From contig JAKZTE010000010.1 of NCBI GenBank assembly GCA_047517285.1, positions 10,852 through 74,851 on the forward strand: a stretch of 64,000 nt of DNA, read 5' to 3'. Below, in pieces: positions 2,879 through 64,000 of the stretch. A program made the position numbers and the translations under genes. The notes below the pieces were generated by a model. It made no database searches and was not told the DNA's origin. It saw only the letters and a program-made list of their open reading frames with translations. The first letter of the stretch is position 1; each line of letters begins with the position of its first letter. The stretch comes from Nitrososphaerales archaeon (GTDB lineage Archaea; Thermoproteota; Nitrososphaeria; Nitrososphaerales; UBA57).

Positions 2879-3340
2879 TTACTTTAGTATTTCTTCTGTT
2901 AATGAAATTCTAGTACAATATCTGCATTTCAATCTTGGCGGATCATCATTAATTATCAATAATTCGGAGATAATTGGCTCGCTTGAATTCGAAATACATG
3001 TTGGATTTTTACATTTGAATACTCCTGTAAATTTCTCTGGTAATTCTACATTTCTTTTCTCTGTTATCTCATAATTCTCAATTATGTTGATGGTTGAATG
3101 CGGTGTTATCAAAGCTAGTCGATTTGTCTCCTCTACTGCCAGTATCCTGTTCTCAATTTTTATTATGTCTTTCTTACTATATTGTTTACTTGAAACATTC
3201 ATTGCCACCGTCACTTGATTTCCATCTATTCCATTGATGTCAAGGGCAGATAGCACATTAAACGCTCTTCCTGCTACAATATGATCCAATACTGTGCCGT
3301 GTTTTATCCTGTTTATTCTCAAATCATATGTTTCTGTCAT
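2879..3340 (-). CDS. pyrI: Aspartate carbamoyltransferase regulatory subunit
   Basis: 153 aa. N-terminal allosteric domain (IKHGTVLDHI) and C-terminal zinc domain (CKNPTCISN ... KCRYC). Adjacent to pyrB. Confidence 0.9.
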   Translation of the reverse strand: MTETYDLRINRIKHGTVLDHIVAGRAFNVLSALDINGIDGNQVTVAMNVSSKQYSKKDIIKIENRILAVEETNRLALITPHSTINIIENYEITEKRNVELPEKFTGVFKCKNPTCISNSSEPIISELLIINDDPPRLKCRYCTRISLTEEILK

Positions 3341-3381: not shown

Positions 3382-4329
3382 GTGTATACATTAATCAAAA
3401 GATTGAAAAATCCATTTTATAACCGCGATATTGTTTCGATAAAGGATTTTCAACGTCCTGATTTAGACTATTTGTTTAAAGTCGCTGATAACCTCAAAAC
3501 AAATTTGCCTAATGATTCGCTACGCGGCAAATCTATTGGACTGATGTTCTTCGAACCTAGTACACGAACTAGGCTGAGTTTTGAATCTGCTATGAATTCA
3601 TTAGATGGCACGTCAATCAACTTTGGAGATCCTTCAAGTACCTCTACACAAAAAGGGGAAAATCTTAGTGATAGTCTACTTACTATGGACCAATACGTTG
3701 ATGCTATAATATTACGTCATGCAAGTGAAGGCGTATCGAGATACGCTTCCGAAATATGCCACAGCCCAATTATTAATGCTGGTAGTGGAAGTGAAGAACA
3801 TCCTACACAAGCGATGTTGGATGTTTTTACCATAATGAATGAATGCGGTAAAGTCGACGGATTAAATATTGCTATCTTTGGCGATCTTAAATATGGAAGA
3901 ACCGTTTATTCACTTTTATACGCTCTTTCTAATTATAGACCAAATATCCATCTTGTTTCTCCTAAACCTCTTCAACTTCGGTCAGACCCTCTTCTAGAAC
4001 TTCAAGACCGATTAAATATAACAACTCATGATAATCTTCAAGATATAATTTCTGATCTTGACGTGGTTTATACCACTAGGATTCAAAAAGAACGTTTTCC
4101 TGATCTGCAAGAATATGAAAGAGTAAAAGGTTCTTATAAAATTGATATGGATCTATTAAATCAAGCAAAAGAAAATCTTATTCTACTTCATCCTATGCCC
4201 CGTTCTGATGAGATACCTAGTGAAATCGATCACACTGCATTTGCAAAATATTTTAATCAGGTAAGTTATGGGAAATTAATCAGATCTACATTACTTTATC
4301 TTATCTTTACAGAAAATTCATCTTTCTAA
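3382..4329 (+). CDS. pyrB: Aspartate carbamoyltransferase catalytic subunit
   Basis: 315 aa with the ATCase motifs FFEPSTRTRLSFE, HPTQ and HPMPR. GTG start; the true start could be a few codons downstream. Confidence 0.93.
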   Translation: MYTLIKRLKNPFYNRDIVSIKDFQRPDLDYLFKVADNLKTNLPNDSLRGKSIGLMFFEPSTRTRLSFESAMNSLDGTSINFGDPSSTSTQKGENLSDSLLTMDQYVDAIILRHASEGVSRYASEICHSPIINAGSGSEEHPTQAMLDVFTIMNECGKVDGLNIAIFGDLKYGRTVYSLLYALSNYRPNIHLVSPKPLQLRSDPLLELQDRLNITTHDNLQDIISDLDVVYTTRIQKERFPDLQEYERVKGSYKIDMDLLNQAKENLILLHPMPRSDEIPSEIDHTAFAKYFNQVSYGKLIRSTLLYLIFTENSSF

Positions 4330-6728
4330 CCACAGCTAGAATAAGCACAAGATAAACATTTACTACAGCCTTCTGCATATATCAGACTCATTTCTCCACA
4401 CTCTGTACATTTACTTCTATTATTTGTATTTGTACCTGATATTTCTAATACTTCCTTCTCTATTTCTTGTTTGTCTGTAATTGTTACTTCCGATTCTGCA
4501 TGTATTGAATCTGCTAATGCATGAGCAACTGCATCTGGAACTGATCTAATTGGAATACTTGTACCTTTTGTCTGATGCCAAGATATATTCTTTGTTTGTA
4601 TTCCCCTCATTGTCTTTATTATTGATTTAACATTAACATCTGACTGTAATGCTATTGAAATCAGTCTACCCATTCCTTCATATGCTGCCTTTTCTTCGTC
4701 CCCTGATTTTCCTCTTTCTATGAATACTTCTCTTGGATTTCCTTCTTGATCTTTATTTATTGTTATGAATAATCCGCTATTTGTATAGGTAAATCTATAA
4801 GTCCTTCCTATAAGGTATTCTGGCCTTTTATATCCTCCAGGAAGTACGTGCGTAGATCGATTATCCGATTTATTTCCACGAAGGTTTTTAGTCTTATCGG
4901 TTTCTAAAACCTGAACATCTAGACATCCATCTCTGTATACTGTTATGCCCTTACAATGCGTGTTATAGGCTAATCTATATGACTCATTTACATCTTCTTT
5001 GGTTGCTTCATTCGCAAGGTTTATTGTTTTACTTACTCCGTCATCAACAAATTCTTGAAAAGCCGATTGCATGAGAACGTGTTGATTTCCAGATAAATCT
5101 GCTGCAATTGGAAACATTTCTTTTATTTCTCTAGGAACCCAGGATATATTCTGAATACTTCCTCCGTTTTCAGAAATCTCTTTTATCTTTTCTTTATCTA
5201 GAATGATATTATGGTCTTCTAATGTTATTGCAAATGATTCATTTAGGTAATGAAGTTCTTCGAAGTCTTCACTTCTTTCTTTAATCCTTGAATGCCTGAC
5301 AAAAACTAGAGCAAAATGAGGTTCTATTCCTGGCGAACAGTTTGCTATTGTTCCAATCGAACCTGTAGGGGCGATAATCGTACAGTTCACATTTCTGACT
5401 TCTCTTCCAACCTTCGCAAAATCACTCTTGTCCCAATATGGGAATGTACCTCTGGTTTCTGCTAACTCTTCAGACATTTTCCAAGCTACCTCTGAAATAA
5501 ATTTCATTAATTCTCTTGAAAAACGAAATGATTCTTCTGAACCATATCTCATTCTCAATTTACTTAATAAATCTGCCAATCCCATTACACCTAGTCCTAA
5601 TCGCCTCATGTTATGCGATAGTTCTTCAATTTCTTTTGTTGGATATTTATTCTTTGTAACAACATTGTCAAGAAAGTGTATTGCATTTCTTGTACATTCT
5701 CGAAGTTTATCCCAATCTATGCCATCATTGTCTGCATTGGTGAATTTTGCAACATTTATAGAACCTAGATTACAACTTTCATTTGGCAGTAGTGGGACTT
5801 CACCACATGGATTCGTTGATTCAATTTTAAAATACTCTCTAACTGGATTCGATCTACTGTTATTTATTTTGTCTATAAAAATTAATCCTGGATCCGCACA
5901 TTCCCATGCACAATCAATAATTTTCTGCCATAGTTCTTTTGCTTTGATTCTTTCACCTTCCCCTCCACATAACTTACATTTTACTTCGTCTTCTGACGGA
6001 TAGACATTTTTTCTACATTTATTACATTTCAAAACTTCTCTTCCAGTTCTTGGATTAATAAATTTATGATATTCTTCTTTTTCCAATCTACTCATAAAGT
6101 TGTCAGTTATTGCCACTGAAACATTAAATTCTTTCATAACTTTTGCTTCTTCTGGCAGTTTCATGTTATTACGTTTCATTTCAATAAATTCTACCACATC
6201 TGGATGTTCGATATTTACTATTCCCATATTTGCTCCTCTTCTTTTTCCTCCTTGTTTGATTACTTGTGTACATTTATCAAACAATTGCATAAATGATACA
6301 GGTCCTGATGCTACTGATCCCGTGGAACCTACTTGGTCTCCTTCCGGTCTTAGCTTTGAGAATGAAAAACCTGTTCCCCCTCCTGTTTTTTGTACTATGG
6401 CCTGAGTTTTTACTGCATCTAGTATTGAACTAGTATTGTCCTCTACAGGTAATACAAAACATGCTGATAACTGCCCTAATGGCGCTCCTGCATTCATTAG
6501 CGTTGGAGAATTTGGTAAGAATTCAAAACTCTTCATCATTTTATAAAATATTTCCTTGGATTCTTCTTTATCAAAGTCCTGATATTCTTCATCTGCACTT
6601 GCTATCGCTCTTGCAACTCTTCTGAATAATTCATCTGGCTTTTCTTGTTTTCCATCTTCAAATTTTAACAAATATCTGGCCTTCAAAACTTTCATTACAT
6701 TTTCGGATAAAGTATCATTAATCTCCAT
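4326..6728 (-). CDS. nrdJ: Ribonucleotide reductase, class II (adenosylcobalamin-dependent)
   Basis: 800 aa. It has class I/II core motifs (LSACFVL, STNPCGEVPL, ESCNLGSIN), no ATP-cone, and the Cys-rich C-terminal tail (CTECGE..CSKCLSCAYSSCG) typical of class II enzymes. No intein-sized insertion. Confidence 0.9.
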   Translation of the reverse strand: MEINDTLSENVMKVLKARYLLKFEDGKQEKPDELFRRVARAIASADEEYQDFDKEESKEIFYKMMKSFEFLPNSPTLMNAGAPLGQLSACFVLPVEDNTSSILDAVKTQAIVQKTGGGTGFSFSKLRPEGDQVGSTGSVASGPVSFMQLFDKCTQVIKQGGKRRGANMGIVNIEHPDVVEFIEMKRNNMKLPEEAKVMKEFNVSVAITDNFMSRLEKEEYHKFINPRTGREVLKCNKCRKNVYPSEDEVKCKLCGGEGERIKAKELWQKIIDCAWECADPGLIFIDKINNSRSNPVREYFKIESTNPCGEVPLLPNESCNLGSINVAKFTNADNDGIDWDKLRECTRNAIHFLDNVVTKNKYPTKEIEELSHNMRRLGLGVMGLADLLSKLRMRYGSEESFRFSRELMKFISEVAWKMSEELAETRGTFPYWDKSDFAKVGREVRNVNCTIIAPTGSIGTIANCSPGIEPHFALVFVRHSRIKERSEDFEELHYLNESFAITLEDHNIILDKEKIKEISENGGSIQNISWVPREIKEMFPIAADLSGNQHVLMQSAFQEFVDDGVSKTINLANEATKEDVNESYRLAYNTHCKGITVYRDGCLDVQVLETDKTKNLRGNKSDNRSTHVLPGGYKRPEYLIGRTYRFTYTNSGLFITINKDQEGNPREVFIERGKSGDEEKAAYEGMGRLISIALQSDVNVKSIIKTMRGIQTKNISWHQTKGTSIPIRSVPDAVAHALADSIHAESEVTITDKQEIEKEVLEISGTNTNNRSKCTECGEMSLIYAEGCSKCLSCAYSSCG

Positions 6729-7080
6729 ATCTACTCAACTCACTGGGACAATTTACTATGCAGTCGAAGTATATGAGCATTTAACAAATTATCCGGTAAA
6801 TGCACGTGCGTTGAAATACAACTAATTAAATTAACACTTTGTTCATCTTTTTTATACCATTCAAAAACTAAACTATTCATATCACTCTATGGATAAATCT
6901 GTATTTGATATTGTGATGTAGATTTTTTTGACAAGATATTTCTCCTTGCACTCTAGTCGCATTTCATTTATACATGAAAATACCTGTTAATCGATTCAAT
7001 CAGTTTGTTTTGAACCTTGTTTTTTATTAATATATTGTTATTCGGTCAATTGTTTCTGACTTACTGATTATAAAAATACA

Positions 7081-9162
7081 TTACCTGACCGGGTATTCTT
7101 GCAATGATGTTGAATTACAATTACTGCATTTTTCTGTGTTGTGTACGTTCTTCGCAGCACATGATATACATACTTTTAATCTACAGTAATATTTGAAGAA
7201 CGTCACTTTCTTTGCTACTTTTGCAGTTATTTCCAAAAAATTCTTAATTGTCGAATTCGACAAATCCAGATAAATAGCATGCCCTCCTTTGAATTTATTC
7301 ATATAGGCACATACTTCTTCGATCTTTTCTGGTTCATCCAAATTCAATATTACTGATTGTTGATATTCTTTCGATTCTGATTTTATAATGACTCTTGCTT
7401 TTCCGAATTTCTCTATATCGATATTTGTAAATCTTTTTGCAGAATCATCCGCTATTGAAGATAATCCGAATTCTTCGCCTAATTTCTTACCTGACTTAGA
7501 TATTTCTTCCATGGCCGTGTCTACTATCTTTCCGGCCAATTTTCCCCTCTCTTTAGCAGTAGCTTTTGTACCTAGAAGACTGTCTATCGCTTCATCTAGT
7601 CCTGTTAAATTAATTATGAGTGGTATCTTTTGGTTAGAAATAATTCCTGTATTGATATTCAACAATGGCAATAGTCCTTTGCCAATCATATCATCAATTA
7701 TTTCTCTCCTTGTCGACAATGCAGATATTGCTGTTTTTAAAATTAAATTAACTTTTGCTCTAAAATACGTATCATCTTTATTCGATTCATATGCAAGTCT
7801 TGGTAGGTTTATTGACACTGCATGTAATACAATATTTCCACTTGCATTATTCTTTACAATGGACTTGTTTATTCCTGTATATGAAAAATTATTCTTTGGA
7901 TCTGCATTTATTGCAATATATCCACCTTTCTTAATAATCCCAAATATTTTCTTAGATAATTCTGTATTTTGTGAATCTATTTGCGGTATGATTAATGTTA
8001 TCTTTGGAATGGCAACTGTTTGTATATACGACTCATAACTTTCTAAAATTAATTTATATATCTTTGAAAGTTGTTTCTCATCTATTTTTAAATTCTTCTG
8101 AACAGTAAGATTTATTGATATACACGGATCACTGCCATCTGATACAACTTGCGAAATCATTTTAAACATTTGTATTATGTTTTCTTTTGAACTTGCTAGT
8201 GTTTTATTATCTAAGAAACTGATTATATATTCGATAAAGTTATTATAAGATAGCTCTACGTTTATTTCTTTACTTAGTTCAGTAGTCAGCAAAACGATAT
8301 TCATAATGCTGTTTGAAAAGTTTTCAGCTTTGCTGATTTGAACCGAACTCAATAACTTCCCTTTTATTTTTATTCCTTGCGTTGGAAGCGAACCCAAATT
8401 CACAAAAATGGTATCTGGTTTCAAACCCCAGACACCTAAATTAGAAATGTGAATATCTCCTGATAAATGAGCATCTGTTACATCTCTTGATAATTGATTC
8501 AGTAGTAGATATTCTGAAAATACCTCCTTTGAGGTTTGTGTTATTAGCGATGAAACTCCGTTATCGCTCCTTGTACTCTGTTTTAACATCTGCGTCACAT
8601 CGTGAATAGGCAATCCAATTCTTGTTAATTTATGCCTATACTCTTCATATCCGTGTTCTATTAGTAATGCATTTACTATTTCCCTAATCAATGGCGCAGT
8701 CAGATAGCTTGTCTGAAACTTATACAATCTTGCTTCTGCTTCGCTTGTCATTTTTTGCGCTAAATCTACAGGCATTCCTGCTTCTTTGACTAATGCTTGT
8801 AGAATCTTATCTGGCTTGAACTCTTCCATCATTTCTTTAGACGTTCTAACATAAATCTTTCCACTTTCTATTACACTCTGTTCCTCTATTTGCCTGGTTA
8901 AATTCAGAATCAATCTTCCCAAGTTTGTTACTGTATACCTCCTTTCTGATCGGTTTAATGTAACCAGCATCTGTTTAACTAGCTTTCTTAGATGATATGC
9001 AAATTTACCTGATTCTTTTTTCGACTTAAACCCCGCAAGTGTCTTTAACTCAGAATAACTTAGGGGCCCTTTTGCATTTAATATACGTAAAATATCTAGA
9101 CGATTTGACGAAGCAATTACAGAATAAATAGTCCTTACCCTTTTTGACGTTCTGTAAGGCAT
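7081..9162 (-). CDS. wHTH (ArsR-like) + ATP-cone + degenerate NrdD-like domain + C-terminal zinc ribbon; putative nucleotide-sensing regulator
   Basis: The ORF is open to TTG 9171, but I prefer ATG 9162 because a TATA-like element lies ~25 nt upstream. Domains read from the translation: SNRLDILRILNAKGPLSYSELKTLAG..YTVTNLG; IYVRTSKEMMEEFKPDKILQALVKEAG..EEYRHKL; RDVTDAHLSGDIHISNL; VSINLPRLAYES; C663/C668/C671/C682/C685. There is no glycyl-radical motif. Confidence 0.65.
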   Translation of the reverse strand: MPYRTSKRVRTIYSVIASSNRLDILRILNAKGPLSYSELKTLAGFKSKKESGKFAYHLRKLVKQMLVTLNRSERRYTVTNLGRLILNLTRQIEEQSVIESGKIYVRTSKEMMEEFKPDKILQALVKEAGMPVDLAQKMTSEAEARLYKFQTSYLTAPLIREIVNALLIEHGYEEYRHKLTRIGLPIHDVTQMLKQSTRSDNGVSSLITQTSKEVFSEYLLLNQLSRDVTDAHLSGDIHISNLGVWGLKPDTIFVNLGSLPTQGIKIKGKLLSSVQISKAENFSNSIMNIVLLTTELSKEINVELSYNNFIEYIISFLDNKTLASSKENIIQMFKMISQVVSDGSDPCISINLTVQKNLKIDEKQLSKIYKLILESYESYIQTVAIPKITLIIPQIDSQNTELSKKIFGIIKKGGYIAINADPKNNFSYTGINKSIVKNNASGNIVLHAVSINLPRLAYESNKDDTYFRAKVNLILKTAISALSTRREIIDDMIGKGLLPLLNINTGIISNQKIPLIINLTGLDEAIDSLLGTKATAKERGKLAGKIVDTAMEEISKSGKKLGEEFGLSSIADDSAKRFTNIDIEKFGKARVIIKSESKEYQQSVILNLDEPEKIEEVCAYMNKFKGGHAIYLDLSNSTIKNFLEITAKVAKKVTFFKYYCRLKVCISCAAKNVHNTEKCSNCNSTSLQEYPVR

Positions 9163-9178
9163 TGAGGACAAGATATAC

Positions 9179-9190
9179 TATATAAATAAA
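9179..9190 (-). promoter_or_regulatory. Candidate TATA box for the wHTH/ATP-cone gene (leaderless or near-leaderless transcript)
   Basis: The minus strand reads TTTATTTATATA, ending 17 nt upstream of ATG 9162. The spacing fits archaeal TATA-to-TSS geometry. Confidence 0.3.
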
Positions 9191-9273
9191 ATATGCATTT
9201 AAAGCTTAAGTTATTTTGACCTAATTCTATCAAATCTAGATATGCTTTTTTATTTTGACAATTATACGTTATT

Positions 9274-9349
9274 GGGGCGGTTGTCTAGTCTGGTCTAAGA
9301 TGTTTGCTTTGGGAGCAAGTGATCGGGAGTTCAAATCTCCCTCGCCCCA
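9274..9349 (+). tRNA. tRNA-Pro (UGG), no intron
   Basis: Cloverleaf read by eye: acceptor GGGGCGG/TCGCCCC (one G-U pair), anticodon stem TTTGC/GCAAG with loop TTTGGGA (anticodon TGG), T arm GGGAG-TTCAAAT-CTCCC, discriminator A. CCA is not encoded. Confidence 0.9.
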
Positions 9350-9360
9350 TACAATTCTCC

Positions 9361-10782
9361 TTATTTTATAATTAATCTTATAGGAATCGATTGTGTTATT
9401 TCTTGACTCTCTACACTTATCATTATTGTATATATTCCAACATCTAGATTCTCTGCTTTTATCAAAATTGGTATTTCCTGTATTGTATCGAATTCACTAT
9501 CTATCTGTTCAAATGTTATAGAAACATTTTCTAGCAATCCATTTATTGTAAACGTTCCAGAACTTCTCATATCTACCATTATCATATCCTTCGGTTCAAT
9601 TATCAATGTGATTTCTTTTAGTCCATTTCTATTCATGTGAATTTCCCTTGTAGATGCTTCGATAGTAAATTCGAGAGTCTTTTGCGCATCTAGTACTGCA
9701 ATCTTATTTTCTGTCCACTCAGTAAACCAGATATTTCCTTGATTATCTATGTCAAATTGAAGTGGATTAGATATTCCTCCCCAGTCAAAATTTTTTGTAG
9801 GTATCTCGTATTCAATCAATATCTGATTGGCCATATCAAATTTTGCTATAGTATTTGACTGGTGAATGTTCATCCAAATATTTCCATCTTTATCAAATTT
9901 GTTCCAATAAGGTAGCGTTGTTGTAAAGTCTGATTTACTTGCAGACGTGACAAATTTTGTATACGTGTTATTTTCAAGATTAAATAAAACAAATTGACTA
10001 GACCCATGATCATTTATCCATATTTTATTATCCTTTATTGCTATACCTACTGGGGATGTTATACCTTCAGGTAATTTATAGGAAGTAAATTCTCCATCCT
10101 TATAATTCCCTAGATGCCCTTCAATTGGCCATGTAAGCATTGTAAACCAAATCCTTCCTTCATTATCTGTTGCAATACCTCCTAAAACCTCTAAATCTAT
10201 TTCTGGCGTAATTTCACTTATTCCATTACTTGTATTCGAAGATAATTTATTCTTATCTAATATTGCAATCTTCTTTCCAAATATTTCTGAAACTATTATA
10301 TTATCTTCAGTATTAATTATCTGAACCGGATATGCATTTTCAGTAGGTAAAATATAATGTTCAAATATATTTTCTGATTTTATGTATCTCCATATAAAAT
10401 TATTTTGATGATCGGTGAACCAAATATCGCCATCAATTGCAATCATACTCCACGATTGGATATTTGAATAAACATCTGAAATTATAAATTCATTAAATGA
10501 ATCTTCTTCTGGATTGTACGAAGCTATTTTACTGTGATTGTTCTCTATGAACCATACTGTCCCCTCACTATCGATTGTTATTGCAACTGGGGCCGAACAT
10601 TTACTCGGTATTACGTATTCTTTGATGTATCTGTTGTTATTTTCATATCTTAAATTACAACTATCTTGAACTTCCTCCTCTGGATCATTATTCGAATTAT
10701 CGATTAATTGTGTTCCTATTATTAATCCGAAAATTATCGGTATTATTAATACCATTGCCAATATTCTTCTTGTTATTACCAA
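9361..10782 (-). CDS. Membrane-anchored or secreted beta-propeller repeat protein (Vgb / streptogramin-lyase-like repeats) with C-terminal Ig-like region
   Basis: 473 aa with an N-terminal hydrophobic anchor. Six to seven repeats of the blade motif xIWFT/I(E/D) are visible (TVWFIEN, DIWFTDH, RIWFTML, KIWINDH, NIWMNIH, NIWFTEW). Confidence 0.55.
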   Translation of the reverse strand: MVITRRILAMVLIIPIIFGLIIGTQLIDNSNNDPEEEVQDSCNLRYENNNRYIKEYVIPSKCSAPVAITIDSEGTVWFIENNHSKIASYNPEEDSFNEFIISDVYSNIQSWSMIAIDGDIWFTDHQNNFIWRYIKSENIFEHYILPTENAYPVQIINTEDNIIVSEIFGKKIAILDKNKLSSNTSNGISEITPEIDLEVLGGIATDNEGRIWFTMLTWPIEGHLGNYKDGEFTSYKLPEGITSPVGIAIKDNKIWINDHGSSQFVLFNLENNTYTKFVTSASKSDFTTTLPYWNKFDKDGNIWMNIHQSNTIAKFDMANQILIEYEIPTKNFDWGGISNPLQFDIDNQGNIWFTEWTENKIAVLDAQKTLEFTIEASTREIHMNRNGLKEITLIIEPKDMIMVDMRSSGTFTINGLLENVSITFEQIDSEFDTIQEIPILIKAENLDVGIYTIMISVESQEITQSIPIRLIIK

Positions 10783-10867: not shown

Positions 10868-10986
10868 GCCGGGGTTGCCGAGCCAGGTCAAAGGCGCTGG
10901 ACTTAAGATCGCCCTTCTTGGAGGGCCAAGTATATGACATCCCGTCACTTAGGTGTTCGTGGGTTCAAATCCCACCCCCGGCACCA
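10868..10986 (+). tRNA. tRNA-Leu (UAA) with 31-nt intron at the canonical 37/38 position; CCA encoded
   Basis: Acceptor GCCGGGG/CCCCGGC, D arm GCC-GAGCCAGGTCAAA-GGC, anticodon stem CTGGA with loop CTTAAG|A (anticodon TAA). The insertion spans 10908-10938. Long variable arm TCACTTAGGTGTTC, T arm GTGGG-TTCAAAT-CCCAC, discriminator A followed by CCA. One U28-C42 mismatch in the spliced anticodon stem. Confidence 0.8.
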
Positions 10987-12367: not shown

Positions 12368-12455
12368 CGCCGTCTACAGGATTTTCATTTGTAATCTTGA
12401 ACCTGCGACCAGTTGATTAACAGTCAACTGCTCTACCACGCTGAGCTAAGACGGC
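12368..12455 (-). tRNA. tRNA-Asn (GUU) with 14-nt non-canonical intron in the T-loop
   Basis: The reverse complement reads GCCGTCT-TA-GCTC-AGCGTGGTA-GAGC-A-GTTGA-CTGTTAA-TCAAC-TGGTC-GCAGG-TTCAA[GATTACAAATGAAA]AT-CCTGT-AGACGGC-G. Removing 12383-12396 restores a 7-nt TTCAAAT T-loop. Confidence 0.8.
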
Positions 12456-59540: not shown

Positions 59541-61041
<1,501 letters not shown>

Positions 61042-61058
61042 TAGAATAAATAGTGATA

Positions 61059-61097
61059 GGGAGTACAGTTTTGACTAAAAATTTCAAGATGTCATAT
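61059..61097 (+). other. 3' strand of the 16S rRNA processing helix
   Basis: Complementary to 59499-59536, as detailed for the 5' strand. Confidence 0.65.
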
Positions 61098-61106
61098 TTA
61101 AATGCA

Positions 61107-61129
61107 ACTCTTCAAAGATCTTGAAGAGT
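61107..61129 (+). repeat. Perfect 9-bp inverted repeat hairpin in the 16S-23S spacer (ACTCTTCAA-AGATC-TTGAAGAGT)
   Basis: Read directly from the sequence. The spacer (61042-~61195) contains no tRNA. Confidence 0.8.
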
Positions 61130-61195
61130 GAAGGACGTAGTGTTTAACACAATTATCGTCGTGTATAGTTGCGTATAGCGTATAGAGATGATCAT

Positions 61196-64000
<2,805 letters not shown>

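Follow-up and report, generated by a model that had tools for sequence, protein, structure and literature searches.

The window analysed here is a stretch of 64,000 nucleotides from a Nitrososphaerales archaeon (contig JAKZTE010000010.1, positions 10,852 to 74,851; G+C ~34%), and the gene in question lies in it next to nrdJ, which encodes a class II, B12-dependent ribonucleotide reductase (RNR). The product of this gene joins a winged helix-turn-helix (wHTH), an ATP-cone, and a body related to class III RNR (NrdD). The gene probably encodes an autoregulated, NrdR-like nucleotide-sensing transcription factor that arose from a duplicated class III RNR and acts on the RNR gene, and it is referred to below as the regulator. 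This reading is carried by the domain architecture, the loss of catalysis, selection, synteny, and motif enrichment, and it predicts DNA binding, nucleotide binding, a dimeric state, and regulation. The original prediction, made from the letters of the window and its open reading frames (ORFs), had proposed an ex-enzyme serving as a (d)ATP-sensing regulator of RNR, a proposal now supported by the domains, the fold, the linkage to RNR genes, an enriched TTGAC motif, purifying selection, and a Bathyarchaeia paralogue beside NrdD, with binding predicted from sequence.

Domain architecture and lost catalytic elements

The longest form of the regulator ORF starts with a TTG at 9171 and encodes 696 amino acids; the ORF lies 352 bp 5' of nrdJ on the same strand, as originally described (Table 1). 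Translation probably begins at ATG 9162 rather than at the TTG, giving 693 amino acids, because homologues open at the equivalent of Met4 (MPYRT), and the length of 696 is thus unlikely to be that of the real product. A TATA-like TTTATTTATATA is located ~20–30 nt upstream of ATG 9162. The regulator is matched by four Pfam families, all above their gathering cut-offs: the archaeal winged helix DUF7347 covers residues 15–89 (E 2e-10), HTH_20 matches the wHTH with 27.9 bits against a cut-off of 27, the ATP-cone (PF03477) covers residues 106–178 (E 2e-8), and NRDD extends over residues 204–689 (E 5.6e-39), spanning profile positions 7–531 of 562. The wHTH also matches HTH_5 and NF033788, with the NCBIfam ArsR score under its cut-off. 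Matches to the NCBIfam NrdD equivalog models are weak (104 bits, cut-off 326), and by these scores the regulator is a relative of NrdD that fails to score as NrdD. No NrdR model matched in the Pfam and NCBIfam scans of the regulator.

The full-length AlphaFold2 model, based on an alignment of 24 family members, has a pLDDT of ~85 in the core and below 50 at the N-terminus, which was poorly modelled at first because the alignment there is nearly invariant; a second AlphaFold model of residues 1–215, with Bathyarchaeia relatives included in the alignment, reached a pLDDT of 82. The best PDB matches of the core model are all class III RNRs, with T. maritima NrdD first (4coj, Foldseek E 1e-21), followed by those of T4, P. 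copri, and S. thermophilus, and the ten-stranded α/β-barrel of the NrdD fold is present in the regulator as judged by Pfam and by Foldseek to 4coj. The N-terminal model comprises a winged helix of three helices, with the recognition helix at residues 51–66 and a β-hairpin wing at residues 70–81, then a long linker helix and an ATP-cone with a β-hairpin (residues 107–117) and helices. The wHTH model matches the ArsR/SmtB repressors NolR, CzrA, and CadC (Foldseek TM 0.75–0.77, rmsd 2.5–3.1 Å), and the cone model matches the ATP-cones of NrdR and P. aeruginosa NrdA. The ArsR-type wHTH, the ATP-cone, and the likeness to class III RNR, which had been recognised by eye, are therefore borne out by both profile and structure searches. 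The wHTH lacks an ArsR-type metal site (α3N Cys or α5 His/Asp/Glu), since residues 1–100 contain no Cys and a single His (H60, in the recognition helix).

The regulator was aligned with E. coli NrdD (MG1655 record), four intact archaeal NrdDs, and many family members. The position of E. coli C175 is occupied by T254 in the regulator and by Thr, Ser, Val, Asn, or Ala throughout the Nitrososphaerota family, and the position of the thiyl-radical C384 in the finger loop of the E. coli enzyme corresponds to I434 or K436, depending on the alignment. No Cys is found in regulator residues 240–260 or 420–450, in agreement with the earlier claim that neither radical Cys is kept. The chain stops 11 residues past C685, ahead of the position of the Gly loop, and no glycyl-radical domain (R-[VI]-x-G-[YF]) is present in it, as had also been noticed; all relatives of ~690 amino acids terminate at the same point. 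The alignment with T. maritima NrdD reaches residue 616 of that enzyme and so stops just before Gly621, which we take to be its glycyl-radical glycine. An alignment that restored the cysteines and the glycyl-radical loop would have pointed to a working enzyme, and both are absent. All intact NrdDs in the alignment have the NxN flap, as ENAN, between cone and core, and all regulators have lost it; in P. copri NrdD this flap closes over the substrate (PMC11226230). The conserved IHIHD motif of NrdD has become IHISN. The AH..G.IH block, the NLPR motif, and the zinc-site cysteines C668, C671, C682, and C685 are retained. These four cysteines are invariant, so that the proposed zinc ribbon stands, but C663, which had been counted as part of it, is not conserved. 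Neither a NrdG homologue, already reported missing, nor a second NrdD-like sequence was found within the 64-kb window. Judged by these residues, the NrdD part of the regulator is catalytically dead.

Conservation, linkage to RNR genes, and candidate operators

Among 5.8 billion proteins searched, more than 100 clusters share this architecture (687–703 amino acids, 46–95% identity), and a scan with one genome per species found relatives of the regulator in at least 540 species genomes. The best 80 loci from these genomes, nearly all labelled Nitrososphaerota, were used for the locus analyses and include Nitrosopumilaceae, Nitrososphaerales, Ca. Nitrosomirales, and the non-ammonia-oxidising Gagatemarchaeum. 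All aligned relatives have the same recognition helix, SGKFAYHLRKL. Comparison with four relatives resulted in dN/dS values of 0.05–0.11 for the whole gene, 0.015–0.07 for the wHTH, 0–0.003 for the ATP-cone, and 0.065–0.16 for the dead core, indicating that the wHTH and the cone are the most constrained parts and that the core is also under clear purifying selection. By this pattern the gene is maintained and not a relic. Contigs from four metatranscriptomic libraries cover parts of the regulator gene and of nrdJ. None of them bridges 6855–7385 though both genes are covered, which, as contigs cannot show absence, weakly favours separate transcripts over co-transcription with nrdJ. One contig covering nrdJ (X27; region of interest 6739–6847) extends to 6847, 119 nt upstream of the nrdJ ATG; if it is derived from RNA, nrdJ has a long 5' leader or a promoter further upstream than the TTAAATGC block described below. 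In two related loci from metagenome-assembled genomes (L052:3131-5452 and L062:5961-8383) the regulator frame is interrupted ahead of the zinc ribbon, with the remaining C-terminal part in another frame; either a frameshift from assembly or a true pseudogene may lie behind this.

An RNR large-subunit gene lies directly downstream of the regulator, on the same strand and with no gene between, in 71 of the 71 informative Nitrososphaerota loci among the best 80; the other nine stop within ~1.1 kb of the regulator. In the window this gene is nrdJ, the presumed target. The linked RNRs are heterogeneous, being 30–96% identical to the NrdJ of the window, and the subtypes are 30–45% identical to each other with the cone present or absent: some are cone-less and have a TSCPD domain, others come with an ATP-cone of their own, and inteins are present in some of them. 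The linkage is therefore independent of any one RNR subtype and of the RNR being without a cone. The lack of an ATP-cone, which had been cited in favour of a regulatory role, holds for the NrdJ of the window and fails as general support, since many linked RNRs carry a cone. Some of the RNR ORFs (L015, L022, L026, L038, L045, L048, and L075) are 1110–1486 amino acids long, 350–700 codons over the rest, and their tblastn matches are split in pieces, which fits intein insertions.

Motifs were sought in 53 non-redundant upstream regions of the regulator, each of 200 nt, and in 49 spacers between regulator and RNR gene, with the other intergenic DNA of the same loci as control. Of all 512 strand-collapsed 5-mers, GTCAA/TTGAC is the most enriched (189 against 73, 4.6-fold, binomial p 5e-63, p-values being inflated by the phylogenetic relatedness of the loci), and among 7-mers TTGTCAA is enriched 10.7-fold and GTCAAAA 20.8-fold. 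The density of TTGAC sites is 7.0/kb upstream of the regulator and 9.4/kb in the spacers compared with 1.7–2.8/kb elsewhere, and at least one site is present in 50/53 of the former and 46/49 of the latter, persisting even where spacers cannot otherwise be aligned. Paired arrangements are more restricted: TTGAC-N5-GTCAA occurs 8 times and GTCAA-N6-TTGAC 11 times in the 22.9 kb of motif regions, compared with 0 and 1 occurrences, respectively, in the remaining 630 kb of locus sequence. In soil Nitrososphaerales the regulator promoter contains TTAAATAC-ww-TTGAC ~15–20 nt ahead of the start codon, the site lying just downstream of the TATA box, and other lineages have TTGAC-N27-TTGAC around the TATA box.

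The motif elements of the window are weaker than those of other lineages. Its imperfect palindrome GTCAG-N6-TTGAC (7045–7060) is the sole GTCA-N8-TGAC in the 64 kb, and the conserved TTGTCAA in the middle of the spacer is a candidate half-site. Both promoter regions contain TTAAATGC(N0-2)ATAT followed by TTGTCC, a pattern with 2 matches against 0.18 expected and none elsewhere in the window, defined post hoc from the same data. Two direct GTCAAAATAA repeats are located upstream of the TATA-like box of the regulator, in a region that also serves the promoter of a divergent tRNA-Pro gene.

Regulator-RNR spacers (L007:3410-3520, L008:2985-3095, L009:6035-6145, and L010:7365-7475) contain a second conserved element, (C)GTCTCAT / ATGAGAC(G), whose enrichment as a 7-mer is 15.7-fold; it is absent from the spacer of the window. 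It is often an inverted repeat, ATGAGAC...GTCTCAT, with arms ~47 nt apart that flank a central TTCAAGTCAA. The element fits a DNA site better than an RNA stem because the arms are conserved without compensatory changes, and Rfam gave no match in the spacer of the window or in eight related loci, so that an RNA element in the spacer was rejected.

Proposed mechanism and alternative explanations

The NrdD body would keep the protein dimeric, as in class III RNRs, and the dimer would offer its two wHTH domains to TTGAC half-sites arranged as GTCAA-N6-TTGAC, as TTGAC-N5-GTCAA, or as repeats flanking the TATA box. Candidate sites of these kinds precede both the RNR gene and the gene of the regulator itself. 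The ATP-cone, positioned between the DNA-binding domain and the body, would read the ATP/dATP ratio, and the nucleotide state would alter the domain arrangement or the oligomeric state and hence promoter occupancy, with the dead RNR body acting as a dimerisation and signal-transmitting scaffold. Expression of RNR and of the regulator would thereby follow dNTP demand, as with bacterial NrdR. In soil lineages the sites closely follow the TATA box, which suggests repression; those of the window, upstream of the TATA box, fit repression or activation alike. In a by-eye alignment the cone keeps the NrdR nucleotide contacts R51, E56, F58, and K62 as R109, E116, F118, and K122.

Several points weigh against this reading. 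In the same by-eye alignment the phosphate-binding Lys50 of NrdR is replaced by Val in the cone, leaving 4/5 contact positions, and both DNA binding and nucleotide binding are predictions. Besides the relatedness of the motif loci, the motif count in the window is modest, with two sites per region, and the motif could belong to another factor. TTGAC is not enriched in four Bathyarchaeia loci, despite a similar recognition helix. Finally, the regulator-family gene is not beside an RNR gene in one Caldarchaeales and one Nezhaarchaeota locus.

These last two loci also bear on the view that the protein is a nucleotide-sensing transcription factor with a regulon wider than or other than RNR (DNA replication, the cell cycle, or pyrimidine synthesis) and that its adjacency to RNR is mostly inherited synteny. 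The gene is retained there without an adjacent RNR, and pyrB and pyrI are conserved neighbours, but the motif clusters in the spacer between regulator and RNR and in the region upstream of the regulator, with no enrichment in other intergenic DNA of the loci, and no other 150-nt stretch of the window holds at least four TTGAC/GTCAA sites, so that we give this view a small chance of being correct. The strict adjacency to RNR genes would suit a non-transcriptional partner, in which the dead NrdD binds the catalytic RNR or acts as an allosteric or chaperone subunit, for example by supplying an ATP-cone in trans to a cone-less NrdJ such as that of the window; ATP-cones on a separate RNR subunit are known (PMC5794259). 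Such a partner is unlikely, since the wHTH is among the most conserved parts, the linkage spans class II and class III RNRs whose putative interface folds differ, and a DNA motif is common to the upstream regions of both genes. A cone supplied in trans is ruled out as a general explanation by the RNRs with their own cones that are linked to the regulator in many lineages.

It is very improbable that the protein retains catalytic activity, whether as a divergent RNR or as some other radical enzyme that relies on different residues. In favour of an enzyme are the preserved NrdD fold, NLPR motif, and zinc ribbon and the purifying selection on the core. Against it, both radical positions are devoid of Cys, the NxN flap and the glycyl-radical domain are missing, the NrdD equivalog models score far under their cut-offs, the window contains no activase, and the host lineage is aerobic. 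A functionless, decaying remnant of an ancestral nrdD could account for the missing catalytic residues and the truncated C-terminus; it is scarcely credible given the intact ORFs, constant in length, of at least 540 species, the low dN/dS with nearly invariant N-terminal domains, and the RNA contigs that cover the gene.

A nucleotide-sensing regulator of RNR may also be more elaborate than outlined above. It is conceivable, and we propose it tentatively, that the dead NrdD body keeps the allosteric machinery of RNR, namely the dimer-interface specificity site and perhaps what used to be the active site, around the highly conserved NLPRLAYESN.D..YFRAK block, and reads several dNTPs in addition to ATP/dATP, the regulator having been held while its target went from class III (Bathyarchaeia) to B12-dependent class II (ammonia oxidisers). 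If so, the regulator would be a complete allosteric sensor of RNR wired to a promoter, and the swap of target would mark the anaerobic-to-aerobic transition of the lineage.

Relation to known systems, wider family, and origin

Like NrdR, the regulator has an ATP-cone fused to a DNA-binding module, a cone model that superposes on NrdR cones, a gene linked to RNR genes, candidate repeated or palindromic boxes (enriched TTGAC sequences) at the RNR promoter and its own, and, by analogy, putative ATP/dATP sensing. Whereas NrdR is a protein of ~150 amino acids in which an N-terminal zinc ribbon is followed directly by the ATP-cone, the regulator has 693 amino acids, an N-terminal ArsR-type wHTH, a dead NrdD body of ~500 residues with the NrdD zinc ribbon behind its cone, and a box sequence (TTGAC) unrelated to that of NrdR. 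The regulator is placed outside the NrdR family on account of these differences in DNA-binding domain, size, and box sequence and of the lack of any NrdR model match. With NrdD it has in common the fold, an ATP-cone of the 'VRTS' subtype found in intact archaeal NrdD, the four-Cys zinc ribbon, and the motifs AH..G.IH and NLPR; what it lacks are the two radical cysteines, the NxN flap, and the glycyl-radical domain, and a wHTH has been added. The winged-helix fold and the recognition helix (FAYHLRKL compared with S-x-H-L-x-x-L) resemble ArsR/SmtB; in contrast to these repressors there is no metal-sensing site, and the sensor is a fused ATP-cone and pseudoenzyme. Trigger enzymes such as PutA, BirA, and NadR are enzyme-derived or bifunctional regulators in which, as proposed here, an enzyme scaffold is combined with a DNA-binding domain and metabolite binding controls transcription of the protein's own pathway. 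The regulator differs from them in that its enzyme half is dead and presumably kept for its allosteric or dimerisation properties.

No description of the wHTH, cone, and dead NrdD architecture was found in full-text searches of the literature outside subscription journals. To our knowledge, control of RNR expression in archaea is essentially uncharacterised. If the proposed function is correct, the family would be the missing RNR regulator for a whole clade that includes the ammonia-oxidising archaea, which are among the most abundant microbes of oceans and soils; it would also be a clear case of a pseudoenzyme reused as a ligand-sensing transcription factor and of convergence with bacterial NrdR on the ATP-cone as a sensor. 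NrdR itself is rare in archaea (PMC9110341). Public annotations of family members read 'anaerobic ribonucleoside-triphosphate reductase', 'ArsR family transcriptional regulator', or 'helix-turn-helix domain-containing protein', and the first of these, in aerobic ammonia oxidisers, is explained by the present analysis and needs correcting. The hypothesis is directly testable, as candidate operators are defined and cultured relatives exist.

The original prediction had looked to Nitrososphaerota, where the family is phylum-wide, but the family is wider. An exhaustive profile-free search of 1.8 billion cluster representatives gave 196 clusters at E ≤ 1e-30, and the family also occurs in Bathyarchaeia, Caldarchaeales, Conexivisphaerales, and Nezhaarchaeota. 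Relatives of 740–780 amino acids with the same order of wHTH, cone, and NrdD have Bathyarchaeia as source labels; they lack the C175-equivalent Cys and keep a degenerate glycyl-radical domain, SRISAKY or SRSLAKY compared with SRVTGYY in intact enzymes. In relatives of 525–600 amino acids from Caldarchaeales (Aigarchaeota) the NrdD part is barely detectable, and others occur in Conexivisphaerales and Nezhaarchaeota; in the single Conexivisphaerales example the regulator-family gene adjoins a convergent RNR gene. All four Bathyarchaeia loci have the gene order regulator, glutaredoxin/thioredoxin, NrdD, then pyrB on the opposite strand. In three of the four (L082, L084, and L085) pyrB and pyrI follow nrdD in the order and orientation of the window; in L083 a hydrolase gene is interposed, and the locus includes pyrB but not pyrI. 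NrdD is intact in two of the Bathyarchaeia loci, with the C175-equivalent Cys, further Cys in the finger-loop region, and SRVTGYY. The spacers between the regulator and grx/nrdD share a TACAAAATTTTATACAAC-like sequence (L082:8310-8400, L083:8307-8571, L084:7310-7400, and L085:7301-7499), which may be a different operator for the Bathyarchaeia branch, four loci being too few to define a motif.

The order and strands of the window match the Bathyarchaeia neighbourhood, with nrdJ standing where Grx and NrdD stand, and the RNR-pyrBI neighbourhood is deeply conserved. The cone and linker of the regulator (VRTS..., PLIRE.VN, YRHKLTRLG.P.YD) match intact archaeal NrdDs, suggesting that the cone descends from an archaeal NrdD cone and not from NrdR. 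The RNR gene appears to have been swapped beneath a conserved regulator, because the Bathyarchaeia paralogue shares the neighbourhood but precedes an intact NrdD. In the simplest history, nrdD was duplicated, one copy gained a wHTH and progressively lost its catalytic parts, and an aerobic lineage later replaced the target in situ by a class II RNR.

Table 1. Features of the window, with positions counted from its first nucleotide
Feature	Position	Strand	Basis or comparison
Regulator gene (wHTH, ATP-cone, dead NrdD core, zinc ribbon)	7081..9171	-	ORF list, Pfam, homologue starts
ArsR-like wHTH, residues ~15–95	8887..9129	-	Pfam, model, Foldseek, invariance
ATP-cone, residues ~104–190, most constrained region	8602..8862	-	Pfam, Foldseek, dN/dS
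NrdD-fold core without catalytic residues, NLPR motif kept	7207..8562	-	Pfam, model, alignments
C-terminal four-Cys zinc ribbon (C668, C671, C682, C685)	7105..7185	-	Alignments
Imperfect palindrome GTCAG-N6-TTGAC, candidate operator, 20 nt past the regulator stop	7045..7060	-	Kept in L002–L006
TTGTCAA, conserved, mid-spacer, candidate half-site	6928..6934	-	Spacer comparison
Promoter-like block before nrdJ: TTAAATGCTCATAT, 19 nt, TTGTCC; mirrors the regulator block	6746..6784	-	Window comparison
Promoter-like block before the regulator: TTAAATGCATAT, 19 nt, TTGTCC; ends 4 nt ahead of ATG 9162	9166..9202	-	
Two direct GTCAAAATAA repeats (9259-9250, 9220-9211), upstream of the regulator TATA-like box	9211..9259	-	
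nrdJ, class II (B12-dependent) RNR; all-alpha, barrel, and TSCPD domains; no ATP-cone	4326..6728	-	Pfam/NCBIfam
pyrB	3382-4329	+	Neighbour after nrdJ
pyrI	2879-3340	-	Neighbour after nrdJ
tRNA-Pro gene, divergent from the regulator	9273-9350	+	Rfam scan
Archaeal 16S-23S rRNA operon	59541-64000		Rfam scan of the window

Seawater metagenomes hold DNA near-identical to the window, and the nearest genomes among the matches listed are marine Thaumarchaeota/Nitrososphaerales metagenome-assembled genomes. The NrdJ of the window contains an internal CxxC...CxxC insertion at residues ~232–262 (KCNKCRKN...CKLCGGEG) and a Cys-rich C-terminal tail at residues ~770–800 (CTECG...CSKCLSCAYSSCG) past the TSCPD domain, for which Pfam gave only weak zinc-ribbon-like matches. 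Rfam places two further tRNA genes at 10868-10983 (+) and 12390-12455 (-), neither of them reported by ARAGORN; the first spans 116 nt and hence probably contains an intron. Beyond the tRNA-Pro gene, an ORF of 473 amino acids at 9361-10782 (-) encodes an N-terminal hydrophobic segment followed by repeated W/F-rich units and is β-propeller-like.

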